DNA from: Escherichia coli
GTDB lineage: Bacteria; Pseudomonadota; Gammaproteobacteria; Enterobacterales; Enterobacteriaceae
Strand: one strand, 5' to 3'
Assembly: GCF_030384885.1 (NCBI RefSeq)
Contig: NZ_CP128613.1
Length of the DNA stretch: 64,000 nucleotides
Positions 8,938-31,276 of this stretch are shown here, one piece after another (the stretch's first letter is position 1; every line of letters starts with the position of its first letter). Under the pieces are notes generated by a model. That model did no database searches. It saw only the letters and a list, made by a program, of their open reading frames with translations, and had not been told where the DNA came from. Made by a program: the position numbers and the translations under genes.

Positions 8938-10362
8938 TTAATGTTTAACCATGACGTGGCGGACGACGGTGTAATCCTCCAACCCATAAAGTGACATATC
9001 CTTGCCGTAACCAGAAAGTTTCTGTCCACCGTGCGGCATTTCACTTACCAGCATGAAATGGGTATTGACCCAGGTACAACCATATTGCAGCCGTGCGCTG
9101 ACACGATGCGCCCTGCCCACATCTTTAGTCCATACCGAAGATGCAAGTCCGTACTGGCTGTCATTCGCCCAGTTCACCACCTGTTCTTCATTGTCAAAGG
9201 CCGTCACGCTCACCACCGGACCAAATACCTCTTTTTGCACGATGGCATCGTCCTGTAACGCGCCAGCCAGCAGCGTAGGCGCGTAGTAATAACCATTACC
9301 CTTGCGCTTTTCACCACCGGTGATCACTTTGATGTGCCCTGTCTCTTTCGCCTCTTCTACCGCCTTGCTGACACGTTCGAGATGCGCCAGCGAGCTTAAA
9401 GGTCCAAGCTCCGTAGACTCGTCATCCGGTGCACCAGATTTTAACGTTGCCACAGCAGCACCAAGTTTTTCCACCAGCGTATCGTAAATACCTTTTTGCG
9501 CGTAGATCCGACAAGCCGCAGTACAATCCTGTCCGGCATTGTAATAGCCAAAAGTACGTACACCTTCGACCACCGATTCAATATCCGCATCATCAAAAAC
9601 TATCACTGGCGCTTTGCCACCAAGTTCCATATGAGTACGCTTTATGGACGGCGCGGTATGGCTGATGATGTGTTCCCCAGTGGCGATAGAGCCCGTCAGC
9701 GACACCATCCGCACTTTGGGATGTCCGGTCAGCGGATCGCCCACTGTTTTGCCTCTGCCAAACAGCACATTAATCACGCCAGCCGGGAAGATATCTTTCG
9801 CCAGTTCAGCCAGCTTCAACGCTGTCAGCGGCGTAATTTCTGATGGTTTAAGCACTACGCAGTTCCCTGCCGCCAGCGCCGGAGCCAGTTTCCACGCGGC
9901 CATCATCAGCGGATAATTCCACGGTGCGATAGAAGCCACGACCCCCAACGGATCCCGACGGATCATTGAAGTATGACCTTCAAGGTATTCGCCGGCCGCC
10001 AGACCATTGAGGCAGCGCGCCGCCCCGGCGAAAAAGCGAAAGACATCGACAATCGCCGGAATTTCATCATTGAACGCACTATGCAGCGGTTTGCCACAAT
10101 TACGGGACTCCAGTTCGGCAAAAACCTGACCATTTTCTTCAATAACATCGGCCAGTTTCAGCAGGCATTCCGCACGCGCTTTCGGCGTGGTTTGCCCCCA
10201 TTCGGCAAATGCTGCATCTGCCGCGCGAACAGCAGCATCCACCTGCTCTGCGGATGCCTCGGCAATCTCCAGTAAAACGTCCCCCGTTGCCGGATTATAG
10301 ACAGGCTGTTTTTCCCCTTCGCCGCTAACCAGTTCTCCGTTAATCAGTAACTTATGTTGCAT
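8938..10362 (-). CDS. patD: Gamma-aminobutyraldehyde dehydrogenase PatD (YdcW)
   Basis: 474-aa aldehyde dehydrogenase with catalytic Cys/Glu context; N-terminus [27 protein letters not shown] matches PatD. Confidence 0.9.
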
Positions 10363-10383
10363 AGCATATTCCTGTATCAGTGG

Positions 10384-11178
10384 TTATTGACCATTGTCGC
10401 CTTCGCGGGTTAGCCACCAGGCCCCCAGGATCGGCAAGGTTGTTACCAACATAACCAGCAGTGCCACCACGTTGGTTACCGGTACATCACGTGGTCGCCC
10501 AAGCTGATTGAGCAACCACAACGGTAACGTTCGTTCATGACCTGCCGTAAAAGTCGTCACGATGATTTCATCGAACGACAAAGCAAACGCCAGCATTCCT
10601 CCTGCCAGTAGCGCCGAACTGAGATTCGGCAACACCACGTAGCGGAAGGTTTGCCAGCCATTGGCCCCAAGATCCATTGACGCCTCAACCAGACTCCAGG
10701 AGGTACGGCGAAAACGGGCGATGACATTGTTAAACACCACCACTACGCAAAAAGTCGCATGACCGACCACGATGGTGAAAAATCCCGGCTCCAGATTGAT
10801 GGTTTTAAAAGCAGTTAATAGCGCCAGACCAGTGACAATGCCCGGCAGCGCAATGGGCAGCAGCAATAGCAATGAAATGGCGCTTTTACCGAAAAAGTCC
10901 CGACGCCACAGCGCAGTAGCGGCCAGTGTCCCTAATACCAGCGCAATTAATGTCGCCAGCGCCGCCACTTTAAGTGACAGTGTCACGGCTTCAAGAATAT
11001 CACTACGCTGTGCTGCCACGCTAAACCAGCGCAGCGTCAGGCCTTGCGGTGGAAAACTAAACGCCGCATCTTCAGTGTTAAACGCATAGGCGGCGATAAT
11101 CAGGATGGGAAAATGTAGGAAAACCACGCCGCCCCAGGCCGCCAGTTTGAGGAGAAACGGTGCGCGTTCAGAGTGCAT
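10384..11178 (-). CDS. ydcV: ABC transporter permease YdcV (polyamine-type)
   Basis: 264-aa polytopic membrane ORF with a permease EAA-like loop; operon position after ydcU. Confidence 0.85.
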
Positions 11179-12109
11179 CGAACGCTCCCAGACGTTTCAC
11201 GAACGCCAGGTACAGTGCGATGAGAACAATCGGCACCAGGGTGAATGCCGCCGCCATCGGCATATTGCCAATCGCCCCCTGCTGGGAATAAACCATATTG
11301 CCGATAAAATATCCTGGAGGGCCAACCAGCTGCGGAACGATAAAATCGCCCAGTGTGAGTGAAAAGGTAAAGATAGAGCCAGCGGCAATACCCGGGATTG
11401 CCAGCGGCAGCACCACATAGCGAAAGGTTTGCCGTGGACGCGCGCCAAGATCAGCCGACGCCTGCAACAGTGACGGCGGCAAACGCTCAAGCGCCGCCTG
11501 CACGGGCAGGATCATGAACGGCAGCCAGATATAAAGAAACACGAGAAAGCGTCCCAGCCCGGAAGTTGACAACGTGTTACCGCCCACCGCGGGTAATGTA
11601 AGGAACGCTGTCAGCAGTGGTTCCAGCCCCAGATGTTGTAAAAACCACTGCGCCACGCCATCTTTTGCCAGCAATAATGTCCAGGCATAAGCTTTAACAA
11701 TGTAGCTTGCCCACATTGGCAGCATCACCGCAATATAGAAGAACGCTTTCATTTTCCCGCTGGTATAGCGCGCCATATACCACGCCATCGGAAAAGCCAG
11801 AATGGCGCTGGCGATAGTGACAGCCACAGCCATGGTTAGCGTGCGGAGGATGATGTCGTAATTCGCCGGATTAAACAGCGCGCGGATATTCGCCAGCGTC
11901 AGTTCTGGCGTTACCGACATGGTGAAATCGTCAAAGGTATAAAAGCCCTGCCATAACAACGTCAGGAGTGAACCAAAATAGACAATGCCAAACCACATCA
12001 GCGGACCAAGCAGCAGCAAAAACAGCCCCAGTCCCGGTTTCCGCCAGAAGAAACCTGACACCTTACCCAATCCTGGGCGCGCAGGTGATTGCAATACGTT
12101 CATCGCCAT
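11168..12109 (-). CDS. ydcU: ABC transporter permease YdcU
   Basis: 313-aa polytopic membrane ORF; overlaps ydcV by 11 nt and abuts ydcT. Confidence 0.85.
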
Positions 12110-13123
12110 TCACCTCTCCTCAACCAGCGGCACCATCACATCGCGCGACCAGGAAACCATCACCTGTTGTCCGGGCGTGAGCGTGGCAGGCAGTTCTTCG
12201 CCTGTCATATTGGCCTGACTTACCAGCAGTTTTTCACCGCCATTCAGTCTCAGTTCAAAACGGGTCGCCGCGCCCTGATACTGCACCGCCTGGATCGTGC
12301 CATTAACTTGCACTTCGCCGGGGGTGTTGAGGCGGATATGTTCCGGTCTCAGGGCAAAACTGCCTATCATGCCGCAAAGATTATCGGCCATTAGCGGCTC
12401 AAAAACGTTGGATGTCCCGACGAATCCAGCAACAAACGGCGTGCGCGGGCGCATATAGAGGTCACGCGGTGAATCAACCTGCTCAATGCGACCGTTATTG
12501 AATACCGCAACACGATCGGACATCGATAATGCCTCGCCCTGATCGTGGGTGACGAAAATAAAGGTGATGCCAAGAGACTGTTGCAGCTTTTTCAGCTCAA
12601 GTTGCATCTGCTCACGCAGCTTGAGATCCAGCGCGCCGAGCGGTTCATCCAACAGCAATACGCGCGGCTCATTCACCAATGCTCTGGCGATAGCAACCCG
12701 CTGGCGCTGACCACCAGAAAGTTGTGACGGTTTACGTTGCTGTACAAACCCCAACGCCACTTTCTCCAGCGCCTCTTGCGCCATTACGTGTCGCTGTTTT
12801 TTATCCACCCCTTTGACCATCAGCCCATAGGCCACGTTGTCAAGAATCGACATATGCGGAAATAGCGCGTAGTCTTGGAAGACGGTATTCACGTCCCGCT
12901 CCCACGGCGGCAGATTGCTGGCGGGTTTACCAAAGATAGATATAGTCCCGCCGGAAAGCTGTTCGAATCCAGCAATCAGGCGCAGGCAGGTGGTTTTGCC
13001 GGAGCCAGACGGCCCCAGCATTGAGAAAAACTCACCATCTTTTATCGCAATACTGACACCATCTACCGCGCGCACATCACCATACAGTCGCGATACGTTG
13101 TCAAACTCCACTGCGTACGTCAT
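12110..13123 (-). CDS. ydcT: ABC transporter ATP-binding protein YdcT (PotA-like)
   Basis: Walker A GPSGSGKTT, ABC signature LSGGQRQRVAIARAL and Walker B LLLDEP in a 337-aa ORF. Confidence 0.9.
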   Translation of the reverse strand: MTYAVEFDNVSRLYGDVRAVDGVSIAIKDGEFFSMLGPSGSGKTTCLRLIAGFEQLSGGTISIFGKPASNLPPWERDVNTVFQDYALFPHMSILDNVAYGLMVKGVDKKQRHVMAQEALEKVALGFVQQRKPSQLSGGQRQRVAIARALVNEPRVLLLDEPLGALDLKLREQMQLELKKLQQSLGITFIFVTHDQGEALSMSDRVAVFNNGRIEQVDSPRDLYMRPRTPFVAGFVGTSNVFEPLMADNLCGMIGSFALRPEHIRLNTPGEVQVNGTIQAVQYQGAATRFELRLNGGEKLLVSQANMTGEELPATLTPGQQVMVSWSRDVMVPLVEER

Positions 13124-13140
13124 AAAACACCCCAGCGAAG

Positions 13141-14286
13141 TTAGCGGCCGCCCATAATGGCAATATAATCCTGCGTCCAGCGACTGTAGGGAACAAACTT
13201 GCCCCCTTCTGCTATAGGCGTTTTCCAGAAGGCGATTTTATCGAAATAGTTAAAACCGTTTGTTTCACAACCTTTTTCGCCTAATAACGGACTGGCTTTA
13301 CACCCTTCCGGCACTACCGGTAACGAGCCAAACCAGGCCGCCACATCGCCCTGCACTTTTGGCGTTAATGACCAGTTCATCCATTTGTAGGCGCAAACCG
13401 GATGTTTCGCTTCGCTATGTAGCATGGTGGTGTCAGCCCAACCGGTAACGCCCTCCTTCGGGAAAACGGTAGCGACAGGCTGGCCTTCGGCTTTCAGGGC
13501 GTTGGCCTGATAGGGCCATGCACTGGAAGCAACCACACCCTCGTTTTTGAAATCGCTCATTTGCACGGTAGTGTCATGCCAGTAGCGATGGATCAAACTA
13601 TGTTGATCGCGCAGCACTTTCAGCACCGCCTGGTACTGTTCTTCGGTGAGTTGATACGGATCGCTGATGCCCAACTGCGGCTGAGTGGCTTTAACGAACA
13701 ACGCAGCATCCGCAATATAAATAGGGCCATCATAAGCCTGAACGCGGCCTTTATTGCTCTTACCGTCCGGCAGATTCTGCGCAACAAAAACCACTTGCCA
13801 GCTATCCGGCGGCGTCGGGAAGGTTTTCGTGTTGTACATCAGCAGGTTCGGCCCCCATTGGTAAGGAGTGCCGTAAACTTTGCCGCCAACGTTAAACCAG
13901 TCGCCTTTAACCACGCGCGGATCGAGCGCTTTCCAGTTGGGAATCAATGCGGTATTAATCGGCTGCACGCGTTTACCCATAATCAGGCGCAGCGAGGCAT
14001 CGCCGGACGCCGTAACCAGATCGTAACCCCCTTTGGTCATCAGACTGACCATTTCATCGGACGTCGCGGCGGTTTTTACATTCACCGCGCAACCTGTCTC
14101 TTTTTCGAATTGCGTTACCCAGTCGTATTGTTTATCGGTTTGTCCGCGTTCGATGTATCCCGGCCAGGCGATAATATCCAGTCGCCCTTCCGGTTTATCT
14201 AAATTGGTAGGCGGTTCGGCGGCGTGAGCGGTCATTATTATCATGGTGAGCGCACACAGGCTGCTGCGGGCAAATGTCTTGCTCAT
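13141..14286 (-). CDS. ydcS: Periplasmic polyamine-binding protein YdcS
   Basis: 381-aa ORF with signal peptide (MSKTFARSSLCALTMIIMTAHA) and PotD/PotF-like fold; first gene of the ydcSTUV-patD operon. Confidence 0.88.
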   Translation of the reverse strand: MSKTFARSSLCALTMIIMTAHAAEPPTNLDKPEGRLDIIAWPGYIERGQTDKQYDWVTQFEKETGCAVNVKTAATSDEMVSLMTKGGYDLVTASGDASLRLIMGKRVQPINTALIPNWKALDPRVVKGDWFNVGGKVYGTPYQWGPNLLMYNTKTFPTPPDSWQVVFVAQNLPDGKSNKGRVQAYDGPIYIADAALFVKATQPQLGISDPYQLTEEQYQAVLKVLRDQHSLIHRYWHDTTVQMSDFKNEGVVASSAWPYQANALKAEGQPVATVFPKEGVTGWADTTMLHSEAKHPVCAYKWMNWSLTPKVQGDVAAWFGSLPVVPEGCKASPLLGEKGCETNGFNYFDKIAFWKTPIAEGGKFVPYSRWTQDYIAIMGGR

Positions 14287-25235: not shown

Positions 25236-26891
25236 TTAACTCATCACGCGGTCGTCAACATACTGACGTTTATCCGGCGCTGGCGGGAAATACTGATACA
25301 GCCATGTTTCACTGATAGCGTCGCCCTGACAACGCAGATACATCCGCATATCGACCGGATCAGTGGAGTCCGAAGTCGGATACCAGTCAAACTGAATACG
25401 ATAACCATCAATGGGTTCAATATAGAGAATTTCGATTTGCTTCGCTTCCCCACTGGAAAGCGTAATCACCGGCTCAATGCCTTTTGGTGCGGCAGCTTTC
25501 AGATCACCACCAACGAAATCGACGGCAAAACGACGCGCCCATTTTTCGGGATAGTGTTCACCAGGCGCCCAACCTTCCGGGAAACCGCCCATGCCGGTAC
25601 GCGTTGCCATAACGCGCGCTAATGGGCAATGAACAGGCGGTTGCGCACTCCAGTACAGACGATACTGGAATGCAAACTCATCACCCGCTTTTACAGCTTT
25701 TTCTGGCTGCCAGAAGCAGACAATGTTATCCAGCGTTTCGCCCGTTGTTGGGATTTCCATCAGGCCGATGGTGCCCTTACCCCACTTGTTACGCGGTTCC
25801 ACCCACAGACTTGGGCGTTTGTTATACCAGCCCATAATGTCCTGATAATGAGAGAAATCACGATCCAGTTGCAATAAACCAAACCCTTTCGGGTTGTTGT
25901 CGGTGTAAGCATTGAACTGCAATTTTTGCGGATTATTCAGCGGACGGCAAATCCACTCGCCGTTGCCCCGCCACATGGACAGACGATCAGAGTCATGGAT
26001 TTGCGGATGAATGGTGTCGCACATCCGACGTTCATTAGTGCCGCAGCTGAACATGCTGGTCATCGGCGCAATGCCCAGCTGTTTAATGTCTTTGCGCGCA
26101 TACAGGTGATTTTCCACATCCATAATCACCTGACTTTTCTCACAATGGATAGTGAACTTATAGGCACCAGTAATGCTGGCGCTATCGAGCAACGCATAAA
26201 CGGTAAAGGTGGTTGCCCCCGGTTTTACCGTATCAAACCAGAAGGCGGTAAAGTCGGGGAACTCTTCTTTACTGTCGGTGTAAGTGTCGATCGCCAGGCC
26301 GCGAGCCGACAAACCGTATTGATATGTATCATCAACCGCGCGGAAATAACTCGCACCGAGGAATGATACGACATCACGGCGCGCCAGTTCGGGGGCTTTA
26401 AACACGCGAAAACCGGCAAAACCGAGATCGCTTTGCCCTTCTAATTGTTTGGTATCAACACCCGCATCGTTGTATTTGAACAACTCCGGGCGAAAGTGAA
26501 TTTCACGCGCCAGATGTGTTGCGGGATCAACAGAGAACATACGAACGCGGCGACGGAATCCCATTCCCATATGGAAGAACTGAGCGTCCAGTTGACGGTT
26601 CTCAACGTTATGCCAGAGCGATTTTTCGGCGTCGTATTGAATACTGTTATAAGCCTGCGGCGTCATTGTCGCCAGAGTGTCAGGTAACGGACGCGGCGCA
26701 CCACGCCACGCGGTTTGCGCTAAGTCGTGCGCCATTGACTGTAGAATGGAGAAGTCAAAACGCTGGGTTTGCCCGTCGGCAATATCAGAATCTGCCGCGA
26801 ATGCCGCCTGAGAAAAAAGAGAAGCAATGCCGCTGGTACCGCACACGGCGGCCATAGCCATTGAACCTTTAATAAATCGTCTACGATCCAT
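25236..26891 (-). CDS. opgD: Glucans biosynthesis protein D (OpgD/MdoD), Tat-exported
   Basis: 551-aa ORF; twin-arginine signal [32 protein letters not shown]; MdoG/MdoD family. Confidence 0.92.
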
Positions 26892-27115
26892 ACCTGAAAG
26901 TGAGTCCTTCTGGTGTTGTGAATGGTCCCGCGCTGGTCGTTTTCAGCGGCAAGAAAGTGCTTATTTATGACCGCTCACTCTAGACAATATTTATTAATAA
27001 TCCAATTGTTGAACTCAGAGAATATGCATTAATCGGCACTTTTTTTATGTCGATGGGATGAGCCTGATTCATTTGTAAAATCAGGCAAATTTTTGCAAAG
27101 GCAGATAGTCAAAAT

Positions 27116-28459
27116 TTAAAGCAAACCACAGCGGCGTTTACTGCGTTCTTCCGCTTCCTGATAAAGCTGGAACTCATCAAAAACTGGGCAGCCCAACGCC
27201 TGCTCAAATGCTTCGCGGCTGGCATTACCGTGACTGCGTGCCTGCGTTTCATTACCCAGATTTGACTGGAAGATCCCCGCAGCGCTAACAGGCAAAAAAT
27301 CTTCATAAGTAATGGGTTGTGCCACTACCCAACCACGTTCAATTAAGGGTTGTGGATCGTCTCCGGGATGAATCGCCTGACGATGCGCCTCACCTGAAGG
27401 CGTCAAACGATATCGGAACCATGCCAACCCTTGCTGACGCATTAAAAACTCACTGTCAGGAAAAGTGCGGAAGGTTTCCTGTAAATGCATTTGATGAGTG
27501 AGATTATCCTGCCCGGTTCCAGCGTTCCGCAGAAGATCATCATACAGTTGTCGTCCTTTCGGCGTTAATGCCACGCCACGCTGCTCTATTTCACCAAAGC
27601 GCGCGGTATGCGTTCCATGTTTCTGCCCCGCAAACAACACCGCCTCTTCCAGGGCTTTAAAGCTGGTCTGGCGAAGTAAAATCGGTACCTCGCGGCGCGG
27701 CGGCCCTTCGATCAGAATTTTGGGTTCAATTCCGCATTCAGGCATCATCGACTGCACCCGGTCAATATCCAGCGTGCGTGGCGTCAGGTGGTTGATATGG
27801 CATCCAGGAAAACAGACCACATCAGCAATCAGCCGATGTTCGTTATGCAAGGCGCGATAGGTTACTTCATCCACCGTTGCTGACTGGTGCCAGCGAAACG
27901 TTTCCAGGGCTTCCTGCACAAACTCCTGTGCCTGTGTTTCGTTAAAACCGCCCCGCTGCTCATACTCCTCTAACAGTTGTCGACAACGTGGGGTGAAGAT
28001 ATCGCGCTGACGCAGAATCTCCGCCGCTTTCTGGCGCAAAAATTCGTTCTCGATAAGCTCAAGACGGAGTAATGAGGTAAAAACGCGGAAGGGATTACGC
28101 GCCAGAGAAGCATCATCAATGGGCCGAAATGCTGTGGAATGTACCGGCACGCCCGCCTGCGAGAGATCGTAATAGCTCACCGGGTACATCCCCATAATGG
28201 CAAACATCCGCCGAAGAGTAGCAAGCTCTTGTGCAGTCCCAACGCGAATTGCCCCATGACGTTCAACATTCAGTCGCGCCAGCTCGTCTGCATTTACCAT
28301 TTTTTCGTGCAGTTGAGGATTGTTTTCCAGCACAGCCAGATTCACATCAGCTACCAGTTCCAGCAGCGTGCCGTACTGCGGAACTTCTTGCTGGTACATG
28401 GCTGACATTGCCTGCGAAAACTGTTCCCGAATCTCATCCGCCGTGATGCTGTTCGCCAT
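27116..28459 (-). CDS. ydcJ: DUF1338-family protein YdcJ (HglS-like putative 2-oxoadipate dioxygenase/decarboxylase)
   Basis: 447-aa ORF; length and sequence match remembered YdcJ. Confidence 0.85.
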   Translation of the reverse strand: MANSITADEIREQFSQAMSAMYQQEVPQYGTLLELVADVNLAVLENNPQLHEKMVNADELARLNVERHGAIRVGTAQELATLRRMFAIMGMYPVSYYDLSQAGVPVHSTAFRPIDDASLARNPFRVFTSLLRLELIENEFLRQKAAEILRQRDIFTPRCRQLLEEYEQRGGFNETQAQEFVQEALETFRWHQSATVDEVTYRALHNEHRLIADVVCFPGCHINHLTPRTLDIDRVQSMMPECGIEPKILIEGPPRREVPILLRQTSFKALEEAVLFAGQKHGTHTARFGEIEQRGVALTPKGRQLYDDLLRNAGTGQDNLTHQMHLQETFRTFPDSEFLMRQQGLAWFRYRLTPSGEAHRQAIHPGDDPQPLIERGWVVAQPITYEDFLPVSAAGIFQSNLGNETQARSHGNASREAFEQALGCPVFDEFQLYQEAEERSKRRCGLL

Positions 28460-28675
28460 AATGTCTGCCTCCAGTGGTCAGTAATCTGGAGTGTAGGTAA
28501 CCACATTCACTCTGGCGGGAAGAATTTACAAACTGTGATCTCGCCGCGAAAACATCAATATTATCCATTTTGCTGTAACACAATTGCTTTAATTGTTAAT
28601 AATATTTTGCAATCAAGTTATCATAATCAAACAACTTCACTTGTCAGCGACACCGCTTCGTTTTTAACATCGCTT

Positions 28676-29599
28676 ATGGAAAAAAATAGTCTGTTTAGTC
28701 AGCGCATCCGTTTGCGCCACCTTCATACATTCGTAGCTGTTGCACAACAAGGAACTTTGGGGCGCGCAGCTGAAACCCTTAATTTGAGTCAACCTGCGCT
28801 CTCCAAGACATTGAATGAACTAGAGCAATTGACAGGTGCTCGCTTGTTTGAGCGTGGTCGTCAGGGGGCGCAACTTACCTTACCCGGCGAACAATTTTTA
28901 ACACATGCAGTCAGAGTTCTTGACGCTATTAACACTGCCGGACAGTCGCTTCATCGTAAAGAAGGTCTTAACAATGATGTCGTCAGGGTAGGTGCATTAC
29001 CTACCGCGGCGCTGGGAATATTACCTTCAGTTATAGGTCAGTTTCATCAGCAACAAAAAGAGACGACCTTGCAAGTTGCGACAATGAGTAACCCTATGAT
29101 TCTGGCGGGTTTGAAGACCGGCGAAATCGATATCGGCATTGGTCGGATGTCAGATCCTGAACTGATGACCGGGCTTAATTATGAACTGCTGTTTCTTGAA
29201 TCGCTGAAGCTGGTCGTCCGCCCTAATCACCCGCTACTTCAGGAGAACGTAACGCTAAGCCGGGTGCTGGAATGGCCGGTTGTTGTATCACCAGAAGGCA
29301 CTGCGCCACGCCAGCATTCAGATGCATTAGTGCAGAGCCAGGGCTGTAAAATTCCTTCGGGCTGTATCGAAACGCTGTCTGCTTCGCTATCTCGTCAACT
29401 TACGGTTGAATACGACTACGTGTGGTTTGTCCCTTCTGGCGCTGTAAAAGACGACCTGCGTCATGCCACGCTGGTGGCCCTGCCTGTTCCGGGGCATGGT
29501 GCAGGCGAACCGATCGGAATATTGACCCGCGTAGATGCGACGTTCTCTTCCGGTTGCCAATTGATGATTAACGCTATTCGAAAATCAATGCCGTTCTGA
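28676..29599 (+). CDS. ydcI: LysR-family transcriptional regulator YdcI
   Basis: ORF 28535-29599; start at MEKNSLFSQRIRLRHLHTFVAVAQQG (ATG 28676) gives 307 aa; LysR HTH plus substrate-binding domain. Confidence 0.88.
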   Translation: MEKNSLFSQRIRLRHLHTFVAVAQQGTLGRAAETLNLSQPALSKTLNELEQLTGARLFERGRQGAQLTLPGEQFLTHAVRVLDAINTAGQSLHRKEGLNNDVVRVGALPTAALGILPSVIGQFHQQQKETTLQVATMSNPMILAGLKTGEIDIGIGRMSDPELMTGLNYELLFLESLKLVVRPNHPLLQENVTLSRVLEWPVVVSPEGTAPRQHSDALVQSQGCKIPSGCIETLSASLSRQLTVEYDYVWFVPSGAVKDDLRHATLVALPVPGHGAGEPIGILTRVDATFSSGCQLMINAIRKSMPF

Positions 29600-29604
29600 A
29601 AAGT

Positions 29605-29635
29605 AAGGGATCTTTCGATCCCTTCTTTGATATTT
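29605..29635. terminator. Bidirectional terminator between convergent ydcI and trg
   Basis: gggatc-tttc-gatccc hairpin followed by ttctttgatatttt. Confidence 0.6.
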
Positions 29636-31276
29636 TCACGCTGTTGCGAAACTAACAGACTCACCAGCTCCGCGTGGTTCTGCCAACACAGAATGTTTGT
29701 TCAGGCGGAAAACGTCTACCGCCTCAGTTAATCGTGCAGCCTGTTCTTCAAGGGATAGCGCCGCCGCAGAAGCCTCTTCTACCAGAGAAGCATTCTGTTG
29801 CGTCACCTTATCCATTTCGGAAATCGCCTGGCTCACCTGCGTTATGCCTCTACTTTGTTCATCCGAGGCGGCGGCAATCTCCTGCATGATATGTGTGACA
29901 CTCGCGACGGCATCAACAATCGTGCTCATGGTTTTCCCTGCCGTTGCCACTTCAACCGACCCCAGGTCAATTAACCTGACTGATTCACTGATCAAGCCTT
30001 CAATCTCTTTCGCCGCCTGGGCGCTGCGACTTGCGAGTGTCCGTACTTCGCTGGCGACAACGGCAAATCCACGTCCTTGCTCACCCGCTCGCGCGGCTTC
30101 AACGGCAGCATTCAGCGCCAGAATATTTGTCTGGAAAGCAATGCTGTTGATGACGGCAGTGATCTCGGAAATTTTCTTTGAACTCGTGGAGATTGCGCCC
30201 ATCGTTCTAACTACACCGGAAACCGTCTCCCCGCCATCGCTGGCTTTAATGGAGGCCTCTTGCGCCAGTTTGCTGGCATGATGCGCGTTATCCGCATTCT
30301 GTTTCACCGTCGCAGTGAGTTGCTCCATGCTAGCGGCAGTTTGTTCGATTGCCGCCGCTTGTTCTTCGGTGCGAGATGAAAGGTCCGCATTGCCAGCGGA
30401 AATTTCGCTGGTGCCACGATAAATCTCTTCCGTGCCCTGTCGAACGGTCCCTACTGTCATCCCCAGTGAATGCTGCATTTGCTGTAAATGACGACTTAAG
30501 CGACCGATTTCATTACGACCTGCCGGATCATCATTCATCGTCAGATCGCCACTGGCGATTTTTTCAATCCGTTGTGCGGCATGTTGCAATGGACGAATGA
30601 CGATCCGACGTAGCACCATAAATGTTATCAGCGTCATGACCACGGCAAGCACAAACGCGCCAATCATAAACATCACACCCAGGCGGGTACGCTGATGGGC
30701 CTGTTCCGCCAATTGGTTGGCTCTGGTGCTACGTATCTTAACGGCTTTGTTCAAAATATCGGTATAAGCATTATCCAGCGGTCGGATCTGCTCACTTTCA
30801 TGATTAATAATCGCTTCAAACATGCCATTTTTGGCATATTTCAACATAGGTTGCATACCCGTGATATAAGCCTGAAAGCGTTGATTTAATTCAGTGTCGA
30901 GGGCTTCATCAGCAGGTGTTTTCACCGGCCGACTCCGGTAAGCCCGATAACCTTGCTGCGACTGTTTAATCTCCGATTCGGCTTGCGCAATATTTCGCTT
31001 CATTGCTTCCATTTCCGCAATACGACTCGCCGCCCCGGCCTGAATCATATTGATCCGGGCCGAACGCAAAAAATCTGAGCTGTTCGCTAACCCGGTCCGA
31101 ATCTCAATCTCCGCAGTCACATCACGCTGATCGCGATCGGCCTGCCAGAGGAAATAGCCAGCCAGGGCTGAACTCAAGGCAAACAGAAGTAAGATACCGC
31201 CAAGAATGCAGGCAAATAACGGAACCAGCCTGATGTGATGCAAAAAACCTAATCGCTGTGAGGGAGTTGTATTCAT
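29636..31276 (-). CDS. trg: Methyl-accepting chemotaxis protein III (ribose/galactose sensor)
   Basis: 546-aa ORF with two TM segments, HAMP and the conserved MCP signalling domain with methylation-site heptads. Confidence 0.92.

Follow-up and report, generated by a model that had tools for sequence, protein, structure and literature searches.

The stretch of Escherichia coli DNA analysed here, a window of 64,000 nucleotides, carries two divergent genes and the spacer that separates them:

27116-28459, minus strand: ydcJ, which is hglS, encoding a 2-oxoadipate dioxygenase/decarboxylase of 447 amino acids (open reading frame, RefSeq gene hglS, family scores and PDB matches)
28460-28675, no strand: the divergent spacer between ydcI and hglS, 216 bp (RefSeq annotation)
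28676-29599, plus strand: ydcI, encoding a LysR-type regulator of the PcaQ lineage, 307 amino acids (RefSeq start, domains and best match to PcaQ)

RefSeq confirms the divergent arrangement of ydcJ and the LysR gene ydcI reported in a preliminary description of the window, and the outer coordinates 27116-29599 are exact. The pair is already known, its enzyme has been characterised, the structure is solved and the annotation is correct, with RefSeq/PGAP already naming the gene hglS. The gene pair itself adds nothing new, and the comparative analysis provides a modest evolutionary and regulatory lead. For ydcI, the ATG at 28676 is the start conserved in all orthologues, with the N-terminus MEKN.LF.QRIRLRHLH (kept in 15 orthologues). 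The GTG at 28535, which opens a reading frame of 354 residues, was rejected as the longest frame and not the annotated start. Positions 26500-30500 are 100% identical to E. coli 2013C-4282 (NZ_CP027579.1), and this region is found at more than 95% identity in 5417 of the 5426 complete E. coli genomes, while the 216-bp spacer reaches at least 95% identity in 5416 of them. The allele of this window shares 97-99% identity with the other YdcJ proteins of E. coli. A word-indexed search with the protein yielded nothing beyond E. coli variants, and a 50%-clustered library was used instead for diversity.

[quoted passage not shown] YdiJ can oxidise D-2-hydroxyglutarate further to 2-oxoglutarate. YdcJ scores 533.5 bits against Pfam PF07063 (HGLS, formerly DUF1338; cut-off 25) and 738 bits against the NCBIfam HglS equivalog NF049974 (cut-off 550), and its matches to PDB 2RJB (E = 1.2e-299) and to HglS 6W1G (E = 6.6e-156) are both full-length. 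The fold is assigned from the solved chain 2RJB_A, to which residues 1-447 are near-identical; this chain is YdcJ of Shigella flexneri (SF1787), which is near-identical to the E. coli protein over all 447 residues and was deposited as an uncharacterised protein without functional data of its own. The VOC fold and the metal site were seen in the 2RJB structure (PMC7286885).

HglS of Pseudomonas putida KT2440 (PP_5260; PDB 6W1G/6W1H) and YdcJ are alike in their full-length alignment, metal ligands, specificity arginine and substrate loop. Across 38 diverse homologues, the metal-binding histidines H68 and H224 are invariant, and in the motif FGEIEQRG E292 is invariant and E290 nearly so. H68, H224 and E290/E292 align to H70, H226 and E294/E296 of HglS. 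We take the glutamate ligand of HglS to be E294, and YdcJ has both candidate glutamates. R72, in the motif ERHGAIRVG, is conserved in the 38 homologues and is equivalent to Arg74 of HglS, which binds the distal carboxylate of 2-oxoadipate (PMC7286885). In the substrate loop (FLPVSAAGIF), V391 and S392 correspond to Val402 and Ser403 of HglS; both are conserved in the same 38 homologues, S392 being nearly invariant and D387, F388, L389 and P390 fully so. The preliminary description had made its assignment of YdcJ as an HglS-like DUF1338 enzyme depend on the metal-binding residues; YdcJ retains every ligand as well as the specificity arginine, and the assignment is borne out by the equivalog model and by published activity on 2-oxoadipate.

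E. coli YdcJ was reported in 2020 to turn 2-oxoadipate into 2-hydroxyglutarate in vitro, the same reaction as P. putida HglS, which accepted no other tested 2-oxoacid (PMC7286885). The preliminary description was therefore out of date in treating this assay as still to come. No route to 2-oxoadipate is known in E. coli, and its physiological source was left open in the same study. In P. putida, growth on lysine requires HglS, and lysine and 2-aminoadipate are its published inducers. In Rhizobium-type loci hglS occurs with AmaA-like, AmaB, YdiJ-like and transaminase genes, whereas E. coli hglS has none of these, and the RefSeq annotation of the window places no 2-oxoadipate-producing genes beside it.

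YdcI has the LysR-type architecture, composed of HTH_1 (PF00126, 69.1 bits) and LysR_substrate (PF03466, 120.6 bits). Its best NCBIfam match is PcaQ (TIGR02424), which spans model positions 1-296 of 300 with 287 bits, just under the curated cut-off of 303.8, and the next family follows at 136 bits. The orthologues of YdcI score 284-300 bits on the same model, all below 303.8, with the next family at about 137 bits. The closest solved structures are those of CatM (E = 1e-28) and BenM (E = 2e-21), cis,cis-muconate-sensing LysRs of Acinetobacter baylyi in the same aromatic-catabolism group. YdcI is, however, not a member of either family, and reaches 103 and 74 bits on models with cut-offs of 580 and 600. 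By these profile scores YdcI belongs to the PcaQ (protocatechuate) lineage known from Agrobacterium tumefaciens and Sinorhizobium meliloti, and not to the GcvA-type LysRs of lysine-catabolic clusters. In such clusters of Rhizobium and Halomonas a LysR gene also lies beside hglS, often divergent as with ydcI, but its product matches GcvA best (266-278 bits) and scores below 70 bits to YdcI. Since that regulator is of another subfamily, the LysR gene beside hglS arose independently, and YdcI is not its orthologue.

The effectors of PcaQ are reportedly beta-carboxy-cis,cis-muconate or gamma-carboxymuconolactone, according to work by Parke in the 1990s. No pca genes are found in the window and no native ones across the 5426 E. 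coli genomes. In the literature YdcI is a pleiotropic regulator acting on gltA, gltP, lldP, dtpA, nhaA and iraP, and these central-metabolism and proton-symport targets are unlike those of PcaQ. The published YdcI work covered here, which did not extend to the Gao 2018 list of 18 ChIP-exo sites, makes no mention of ydcJ as a target.

The neighbourhoods of 80 hglS loci among the matches listed were compared, 31 from Enterobacterales and 49 from other orders; Salmonella and Klebsiella are absent from this sample. Upstream of hglS, and divergent from it, an orthologue of YdcI with 64-97% identity is present in 30 of the 31 Enterobacterales loci and in 0 of the 49 others, again among the matches listed. 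Outside Enterobacterales the listed loci carry pipecolate/2-aminoadipate genes, often with a GcvA-type LysR, and none of the listed enteric loci has lysine-pathway genes next to hglS. Four kinds of content occupy the gap between ydcI and hglS: nothing, pcaHG, an MFS gene or a pyrophosphatase gene. The pcaHG genes (PcaH 365 bits, cut-off 296; PcaG 265 bits, cut-off 126) lie there in at least five relatives (loci L008, L010, L011, L021 and L023), adjoining ydcI upstream on the same strand and not divergent as with PcaQ. A PcaK-like MFS gene fills the gap in at least three loci; the order in Erwiniaceae is ydcI, then the PcaK-like MFS gene and hglS on the opposite strand. In some loci a PQQ dehydrogenase of the glucose/quinate/shikimate family adjoins ydcI. 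A carboxylesterase gene downstream of hglS is present in relatives and missing in the Escherichia lineage. The pairing of ydcI and hglS outlasts rearrangements on both outer flanks, across two families.

At least 14 related loci carry the dyad ATAAC-N5-GTTAT at 9-10 of 10 positions, placed at -115 to -134 from the hglS ATG and about 35-50 bp upstream of a conserved GATCACA element. The half-sites of this enteric dyad, ATAACC...GGTTAT, are near-identical to those of the operator of PcaQ in S. meliloti, ATAaccgggggatTAT (PMC5002191). In at least nine relatives the dyad lies between ydcI and hglS without pcaHG, and there it can only serve ydcI or hglS. At the loci without pcaHG its distance to hglS is constrained to the range given, whereas that to ydcI varies from +136 to +249. 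Even where it occurs, the dyad may act on pcaH or ydcI and not on hglS.

The upstream regions of six published YdcI targets of E. coli contain seven dyads scoring at least 9 of 10, against 0.88 expected from shuffles. With N5 spacing, six fall in 3.0 kb of target upstream DNA, compared with two in 15.7 kb of flanks and one in the 64-kb window. The targets with this enrichment are gltP (whose site of the dyad type is ATAACAAATGGTTAT), lldP, iraP, dtpA and gltA. The enrichment suggests that YdcI recognises the dyad. The lone 9/10 dyad of the window (29020-29034, inside ydcI) is attributed to chance; its orthologues score 3-9, with no conservation. In the E. coli spacer between ydcI and hglS the best candidate scores 8 of 10 with the wrong spacing (N6), which is chance level, and within Escherichia conservation of the spacer is lowest in the stretch where relatives carry the dyad. 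The dyad is absent from the Escherichia spacer, so that E. coli has retained enzyme and regulator and not the canonical operator. Of the marks of a classical divergent LysR unit, divergent genes with a shared spacer are present, but a T-N11-A dyad is not found in the E. coli spacer. The other elements of the spacer are as follows:

28620-28647, minus strand: promoter-like site CTGACA-16-TATGAT directed toward ydcJ, the best consensus match of the region (10/12)
28594-28623, plus strand: invariant block next to ydcI (TGTTAA..TTTG..GTTATCA), from invariant columns in 24 species
28596-28601 and 28619-28624, plus strand: promoter-like hexamers TTAATA and TATCAT of ydcI, from a promoter scan, coinciding with the ydcI-side block
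28580-28596, no strand: E. coli-specific inverted repeat I6, ACAATT-N5-AATTGT, where relatives carry the ATAAC-N5-GTTAT box
28534-28540, minus strand: conserved GATCACA element, nearly invariant in the hglS-proximal alignment A3
28520-28527, minus strand: conserved AAATTCTT element downstream of GATCACA (T77, T80 and T81 nearly invariant in alignment A3)
28490-28495, minus strand: TACACT, candidate -10 hexamer (TAnnnT) of an hglS-proximal promoter (alignment A3)
28468-28472, minus strand: Shine-Dalgarno sequence GGAGG of hglS, lying in the 3' arm of a putative hairpin (inverted repeat I3)

The conserved blocks segregate, one travelling with ydcI and the other with hglS. The ydcI-side block is invariant also at loci where the gene opposite it is not hglS and is pcaG, an MFS gene or a pyrophosphatase gene, and the CTGACA-16-TATGAT block is likewise found at loci without hglS downstream. 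The TTAATA/TATCAT hexamers for ydcI and CTGACA/TATGAT for ydcJ are also given by Shimada 2014, in a spacer from RpoD-holoenzyme SELEX marked as bound by H-NS (PMC3946193). The block next to ydcI contains the single half-sites ATAAC and TTAAC, which could permit non-canonical binding of YdcI overlapping the promoter-like site toward ydcJ. The repeat I6, which falls where the spacer is least conserved, scores below 8/10 against the YdcI box; it was rejected as a non-canonical operator because neither a divergent E. coli nor E. albertii preserves it.

On the hglS side, GATCACA lies at -76 to -83 from the start codon in every Enterobacterales locus listed except Erwinia (-98). It was read by eye as a possible CRP half-site, and the other half is not conserved. 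The sole invariant columns of the hglS-proximal alignment, T106, A107 and T111, form the TAnnnT pattern, and TACACT is the putative -10 hexamer of hglS. In the hglS leader, CTCCAG (28486-28491) could pair on the transcript with CTGGAG (28469-28474), and this hairpin appears in the minimum-free-energy fold with a z-score of only -1.73. Covariation does not support it, because pairs occur in 78.9% of cells against 78.5% in shuffles. RNAalifold on 19 hglS leaders gave no consensus structure, and an Rfam scan of the spacer returned noise only (E >4).

The account preferred here, with a probability of roughly 0.6, is that HglS stands next to a PcaQ-lineage regulator whose local dyad was lost in Escherichia and which acts mainly elsewhere. 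The divergent arrangement would have been inherited from the ancestor of Enterobacteriaceae and Erwiniaceae, probably with the dyad between ydcI and hglS, where some extant lineages also have pcaHG or a PcaK-like transporter. The Escherichia lineage would have come to be without pcaHG, without the downstream carboxylesterase gene and without the dyad-bearing stretch of the spacer. Since Escherichia lacks the local dyad, YdcI would act mainly at the other dyad-bearing promoters, those of gltP, lldP, iraP, dtpA and gltA. Transcription of hglS would probably start from its own conserved proximal elements, under control by growth phase and CsrA; ydcJ is induced, along with ydcI, on entry into stationary phase (PMC2241611) and reportedly responds strongly to CsrB/CsrC (PMC5389547). 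Classical substrate induction through activation by YdcI is improbable for this gene in E. coli. On this point the preliminary description, which took the divergent LysR gene as a sign of a substrate-inducible step, is only partly borne out. Its conclusion for E. coli is weakened by the missing dyad, the PcaQ-like character of YdcI, the confinement of the pairing to Enterobacterales among the matches listed and the silence on ydcJ in published descriptions of YdcI targets. With the operator missing in E. coli and present in relatives, caution is due in reading a divergent LysR gene as a local inducible regulator there.

The alternative that survives best, though we consider it unlikely, is that E. 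coli YdcI is a dedicated local regulator of ydcJ, which binds the spacer and activates hglS with 2-oxoadipate, 2-aminoadipate or lysine. Divergent LysR-target pairs are usually regulatory (PMC9068703), and the near-universal pairing in the Enterobacterales loci listed, the selected dyad in relatives lacking pcaHG and a dyad-like site upstream of the MFS gene that precedes hglS in Erwiniaceae all favour such a role. Moreover, ydcJ and ydcI are induced together at stationary-phase entry (PMC2241611), which is compatible with shared control. YdcI may still bind the E. coli spacer, and the divergent pairing kept in all Escherichia genomes could itself reflect function. Against this, the E. coli spacer has no above-chance dyad, the inverted repeat that it does have is not maintained even among Escherichia, YdcI is unrelated to the GcvA-type LysRs of lysine clusters, ydcJ goes unnamed as a target in the YdcI work covered (the full ChIP-exo list of Gao 2018 aside), and no 2-oxoadipate-producing genes flank E. 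coli hglS.

PcaHG belongs to the pathway that yields 3-oxoadipate, which is not a 2-oxoacid. This weighs against the improbable view that HglS of Enterobacterales serves aromatic-acid and not lysine catabolism, with a 2-oxo-dicarboxylate from protocatechuate or quinate breakdown, or from PcaK-like uptake, as its substrate. Such a role would explain the lasting link to a PcaQ-type regulator, and is favoured by the linkage of hglS to pcaHG in at least five loci and to a PcaK-like aromatic-acid:H+ symporter in at least four, by the PQQ dehydrogenase beside some ydcI genes and by the lack of adjacent lysine-pathway genes in the enteric loci listed. However, the residues for 2-oxoadipate specificity are fully conserved, the in vitro substrate is 2-oxoadipate with no other tested 2-oxoacid taken by the P. 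putida enzyme, and pca genes are missing from most of the enteric loci listed and from all E. coli. Slightly less credible still is that ydcI and hglS are simple neighbours at a variable insertion hotspot, functionally unconnected in every lineage, as the four gap contents and the clean segregation of the conserved blocks might imply, since the pairing, at 64-97% identity, has persisted in two families whose outer flanks were rearranged and the dyad keeps its distance to hglS and not to ydcI where pcaHG is absent.

Within the preferred account, in which YdcI acts mainly away from hglS, we tentatively propose, with the odds somewhat against it, that YdcI is an exapted PcaQ, which outlived the loss of the protocatechuate pathway and of the local operator in Escherichia and now uses the same dyad for gltA, gltP, lldP, dtpA and iraP. 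If so, hglS would be the one neighbour retained from the ancestral locus and would now be governed by growth phase and Csr, and the effector of YdcI would be a muconate-like or tricarboxylate-like acid. With a PcaQ-like family and a concrete operator sequence given to YdcI, the list of candidate effectors is therefore short. The same proposal would explain the frequent mutation and selection of ydcI in acetate, long-term-starvation and persister selections, where this poorly understood regulator is recurrently selected.

RefSeq annotates opgD, hglS, ydcI, and trg in the region 26500-30500 of the window, and the preliminary description was right both in its coordinates for ydcJ (hglS) and ydcI and in calling the two genes divergent:

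27116-28459, minus strand: hglS (ydcJ), 447 amino acids (RefSeq)
28676-29599, plus strand: ydcI, 307 amino acids (RefSeq), ATG start at 28676

The spacer between them is 216 bp. A GTG start for ydcI at 28535 (354-aa ORF, covering most of the spacer, 28535-28675) was rejected as a longest-ORF artefact, because the orthologues all start at the ATG that gives MEKN.LF.QRIRLRHLH. In the convergent ydcI-trg gap, the G+C-rich inverted repeat AAGGGATCTTTCGATCCCTT (29605-29624), followed by a T-rich stretch, is likely a terminator. The region is 100% identical to E. coli 2013C-4282 (chromosomal) and is present at >95% identity in 5417 of 5426 complete E. coli genomes. The source strain alone matches at ≥99%; the 5416 other genomes lie at 95-99% (next best 98.6%), and thus the window carries a somewhat divergent allele.

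The proposed HglS-like identity of YdcJ is confirmed by scores of 533.5 bits against Pfam HGLS and 738 bits against the NCBIfam HglS equivalog (cut-off 550). YdcJ is nearly identical to Shigella YdcJ, whose structure is solved (2RJB), and its alignment to P. putida HglS (6W1G) spans the full length. From the 6W1G alignment and an alignment of 38 diverse homologues, HglS His70, Arg74, His226, Glu294/Glu296, and Val402/Ser403 correspond to YdcJ H68, R72, H224, E290/E292, and V391/S392, each invariant or nearly so in the 38 homologues. The metal-binding residues, whose loss the preliminary description named as counting against HglS, are therefore kept. Moreover, the in vitro test that it suggested is already published: E. 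coli YdcJ turns 2-oxoadipate into 2-hydroxyglutarate with "identical activity to HglS", and the authors leave undecided a second lysine route in E. coli or another use of 2-oxoadipate (Thompson et al. 2020, PMC7286885). No later literature on the E. coli physiology of YdcJ was found. The assignment of YdcJ as HglS is secure and is not new.

The further claim, that YdcI is a local regulator making hglS substrate-inducible, stands in its gene arrangement but not in the E. coli spacer. A genome-collection scan with a YdcJ alignment gave at least 80 hglS loci, which were searched by tblastn with YdcI and by ORF clustering. Among those listed, a YdcI orthologue (64-97% identity) lies divergent and upstream of hglS in 30 of 31 Enterobacterales loci, the exception being Erwinia mallotivora, which lacks ydcI there. 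By tblastn, none of the 49 listed loci from Halomonadaceae, Rhizobiales, Xanthomonadaceae, Pseudomonas, Ralstonia, and Sphingomonas has one at hglS, and many of these 49 show a classical lysine context. The divergent pairing would thus reflect inheritance within Enterobacterales. One Rhizobium sp. locus (L057) has a compact cluster, which makes a complete pipecolate-to-2-oxoglutarate gene set:

3662-13216, one strand: AmaA-like oxidase, GcvA-type LysR, hglS, YdiJ-like D-2-hydroxyglutarate dehydrogenase, AmaB (809 bits, above cut-off), aminotransferase

Its LysR is GcvA-type, whereas E. coli YdcI is not, so a LysR gene beside hglS is recurrent across orders yet non-orthologous.

The ydcI-hglS gap is empty of genes in 20 listed loci, E. 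coli included. In five (Pseudocitrobacter, Kluyvera, Cedecea sulfonylureivorans, RIT691) it holds pcaH and pcaG (protocatechuate 3,4-dioxygenase) on the ydcI strand, with pcaH at 365 bits against a cut-off of 296 and pcaG at 265 against 126. In three loci of Pantoea and Mixta the gap holds a PcaK-like aromatic-acid:H+ symporter gene on the hglS strand, and in two of Citrobacter a Mn-dependent pyrophosphatase gene. In Erwiniaceae (L028 4599-5933, L029, L030, L032) the symporter gene is immediately 5' of hglS on the same strand; since this pair is kept in E. mallotivora, which has no ydcI, the transporter is suggested to import the HglS substrate or a precursor. Directly 3' of hglS, most listed relatives have a carboxylesterase gene (type B, Pfam COesterase, 331 bits; L008 7385-8893, L024 7385-8896, and 17 other listed loci), which may be co-transcribed with hglS; E. 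coli lacks it and has opgD there instead. Two genes past hglS, many Enterobacter-type loci (L013 8879-11809, L024 8883-11806, and similar) carry a GcvA-type LysR gene divergent from genes for a YbdL-like methionine aminotransferase (732 bits) and an ArgT/HisJ-like lysine/arginine/ornithine-binding protein. Together they may form a module for basic amino acids that supplies a 2-oxoacid; E. coli does not have it at the hglS site. E. coli has no native pcaHG: among the 5426 complete genomes the only matches are four strains, JME64-67 (NZ_CP042843-CP042846, ~1.286-1.292 Mb), with a pcaH 69% identical to enteric pcaH at a different chromosomal site. Their host is listed as 'not applicable', so they are probably engineered.

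By family scores, YdcI is a LysR protein of the PcaQ lineage. PcaQ, the pca-operon activator, is by far the best family (E. coli 287 bits, next family ~137 bits), and the orthologues score 284-300 bits, like E. coli below the cut-off of 303.8. The closest solved structures are CatM and BenM, which sense muconate. Published work reports repression of gltA and activation of nhaA, dtpA, lldP, and gltP by YdcI (PMC6237786), and loss-of-function ydcI mutations recur under long-term starvation (PMC11441560) and also in acetate chemostats. This regulon and mutation literature, including both papers, does not mention ydcJ, and no literature link of ydcI to protocatechuate was found.

The dyad ATAAC-N5-GTTAT (T-N11-A) lies, at 9-10/10, between ydcI-side and hglS-side elements in 14 listed loci. 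Five of these are the full set of pcaHG loci; the other nine, among them Kosakonia, Phytobacter, Pseudescherichia, and Cedecea neteri, have no pcaHG. The dyad is centred 115-134 bp 5' of the hglS ATG, and both its N5 spacer and the flanking sequence vary. Comparison of the loci indicates that the dyad is under selection in many relatives, where it could serve pcaH, hglS, or ydcI. It is almost identical to the PcaQ site reported for S. meliloti, ATAaccgggggatTAT (PMC5002191). YdcI orthologues differ hardly at all in their DNA-binding domain and so should share the dyad. The scan for it covered the sequence upstream of six MG1655 genes published as YdcI targets.

Dyad matches with N5 spacing upstream of published YdcI targets
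gltP: ATAACAAATGGTTAT, N5, 10/10
gltP, 29 bp downstream of the first gltP site: ATAAACTCGCGTTAT, N5, 9/10
lldP: ATAACATTTAGTTAA, N5, 9/10
iraP: ATAACTTTTATTTAT, N5, 9/10
dtpA: ATAACCTTTCTTTAT, N5, 9/10
gltA: ATGACGCGCAGTTAT, N5, 9/10

A seventh match, with N4 spacing, is in the gltA-sdhC spacer, and nhaA reaches only 8/10. The seven matches at ≥9/10 compare with 0.88 expected from shuffles, and the six N5 matches in 3.0 kb of target sequence with two in 15.7 kb of flanking MG1655 and one in the whole 64-kb window. The dyad also fits Gao's site description, as ATAA-N7-TTAT amounts to two AT-rich repeats 7 nt apart. The single 9/10 match of the window (ATTACCTTCAGTTAT, 29020-29034, inside the ydcI coding sequence) is unconserved, with orthologues scoring 3-9, and is probably due to chance.

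The E. coli ydcI-hglS spacer has no dyad above chance (best 8/10, N6 spacing), nor do those of E. albertii and the Enterobacter cloacae group; these three have the shortest spacers (216-276 bp). The place of the relatives' dyad is occupied in E. coli by the inverted repeat ACAATT-N5-AATTGT, in a stretch (~28555-28593) that is the least conserved of the spacer within Escherichia; neither a divergent E. coli nor E. albertii has the repeat. Escherichia lacks the dyad at the locus, pcaHG, and the esterase gene, and has the dyad instead at the published YdcI targets. Given this distribution, it is unlikely that YdcI mediates classical substrate induction of hglS in E. coli, with a probability of roughly one in four; non-canonical binding of YdcI to the spacer may occur. 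We infer the direction of the dyad and gene gains and losses, and the YdcI effector. The gene pair is ordinary, as first described, and the by-product, a concrete candidate operator and a family assignment for YdcI, is a modest, testable lead.

The remaining spacer elements divide between the two genes. The ydcI-side block, on the plus strand, and one hglS-side element are as follows:

28594-28599, plus strand: TGTTAA, ydcI side
28606-28609, plus strand: TTTG, ydcI side
28617-28623, plus strand: GTTATCA, ydcI side, then conserved up to the ydcI ATG
28490-28495: TACACT, the invariant TAnnnT of the hglS-side set

The ydcI-adjoining block is invariant in all four gap architectures and is kept even where it faces pcaG and not hglS, and so it belongs to ydcI. 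Promoter-like hexamers found by our scan coincide with it; identical hexamers were given for the ydcI-ydcJ spacer, bound by RpoD holoenzyme and marked H-NS (Shimada 2014, PMC3946193). The second set travels with hglS in the order GATCACA (fixed at -76 to -83 from the hglS ATG), AAATTCTT, TAnnnT, and Shine-Dalgarno. GATCACA-N6-AAATTCTT (28520-28540) keeps a constant distance to the hglS ATG across Enterobacterales, MFS-upstream loci included, contains a GATC (Dam) site, and looks like one CRP half-site. All promoter assignments in this spacer are putative.

Other control of ydcJ has been reported. On stationary-phase entry in O157:H7, ydcI rises 3.35-fold and ydcJ 3.64-fold, and both cluster with the ast operon (PMC2241611), and removal of CsrB and CsrC gives a strong ydcJ response (PMC5389547). 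RNAalifold on the hglS leaders and Rfam returned nothing, and a pair-count test found no covariation above shuffles for a possible CUCCAG/CUGGAG hairpin in the leader (28469-28491, minus-strand transcript). This hairpin would occlude the Shine-Dalgarno sequence and could be linked to the CsrA control described for ydcJ; at its position Siccibacter has CTCGTG/CACGAG.
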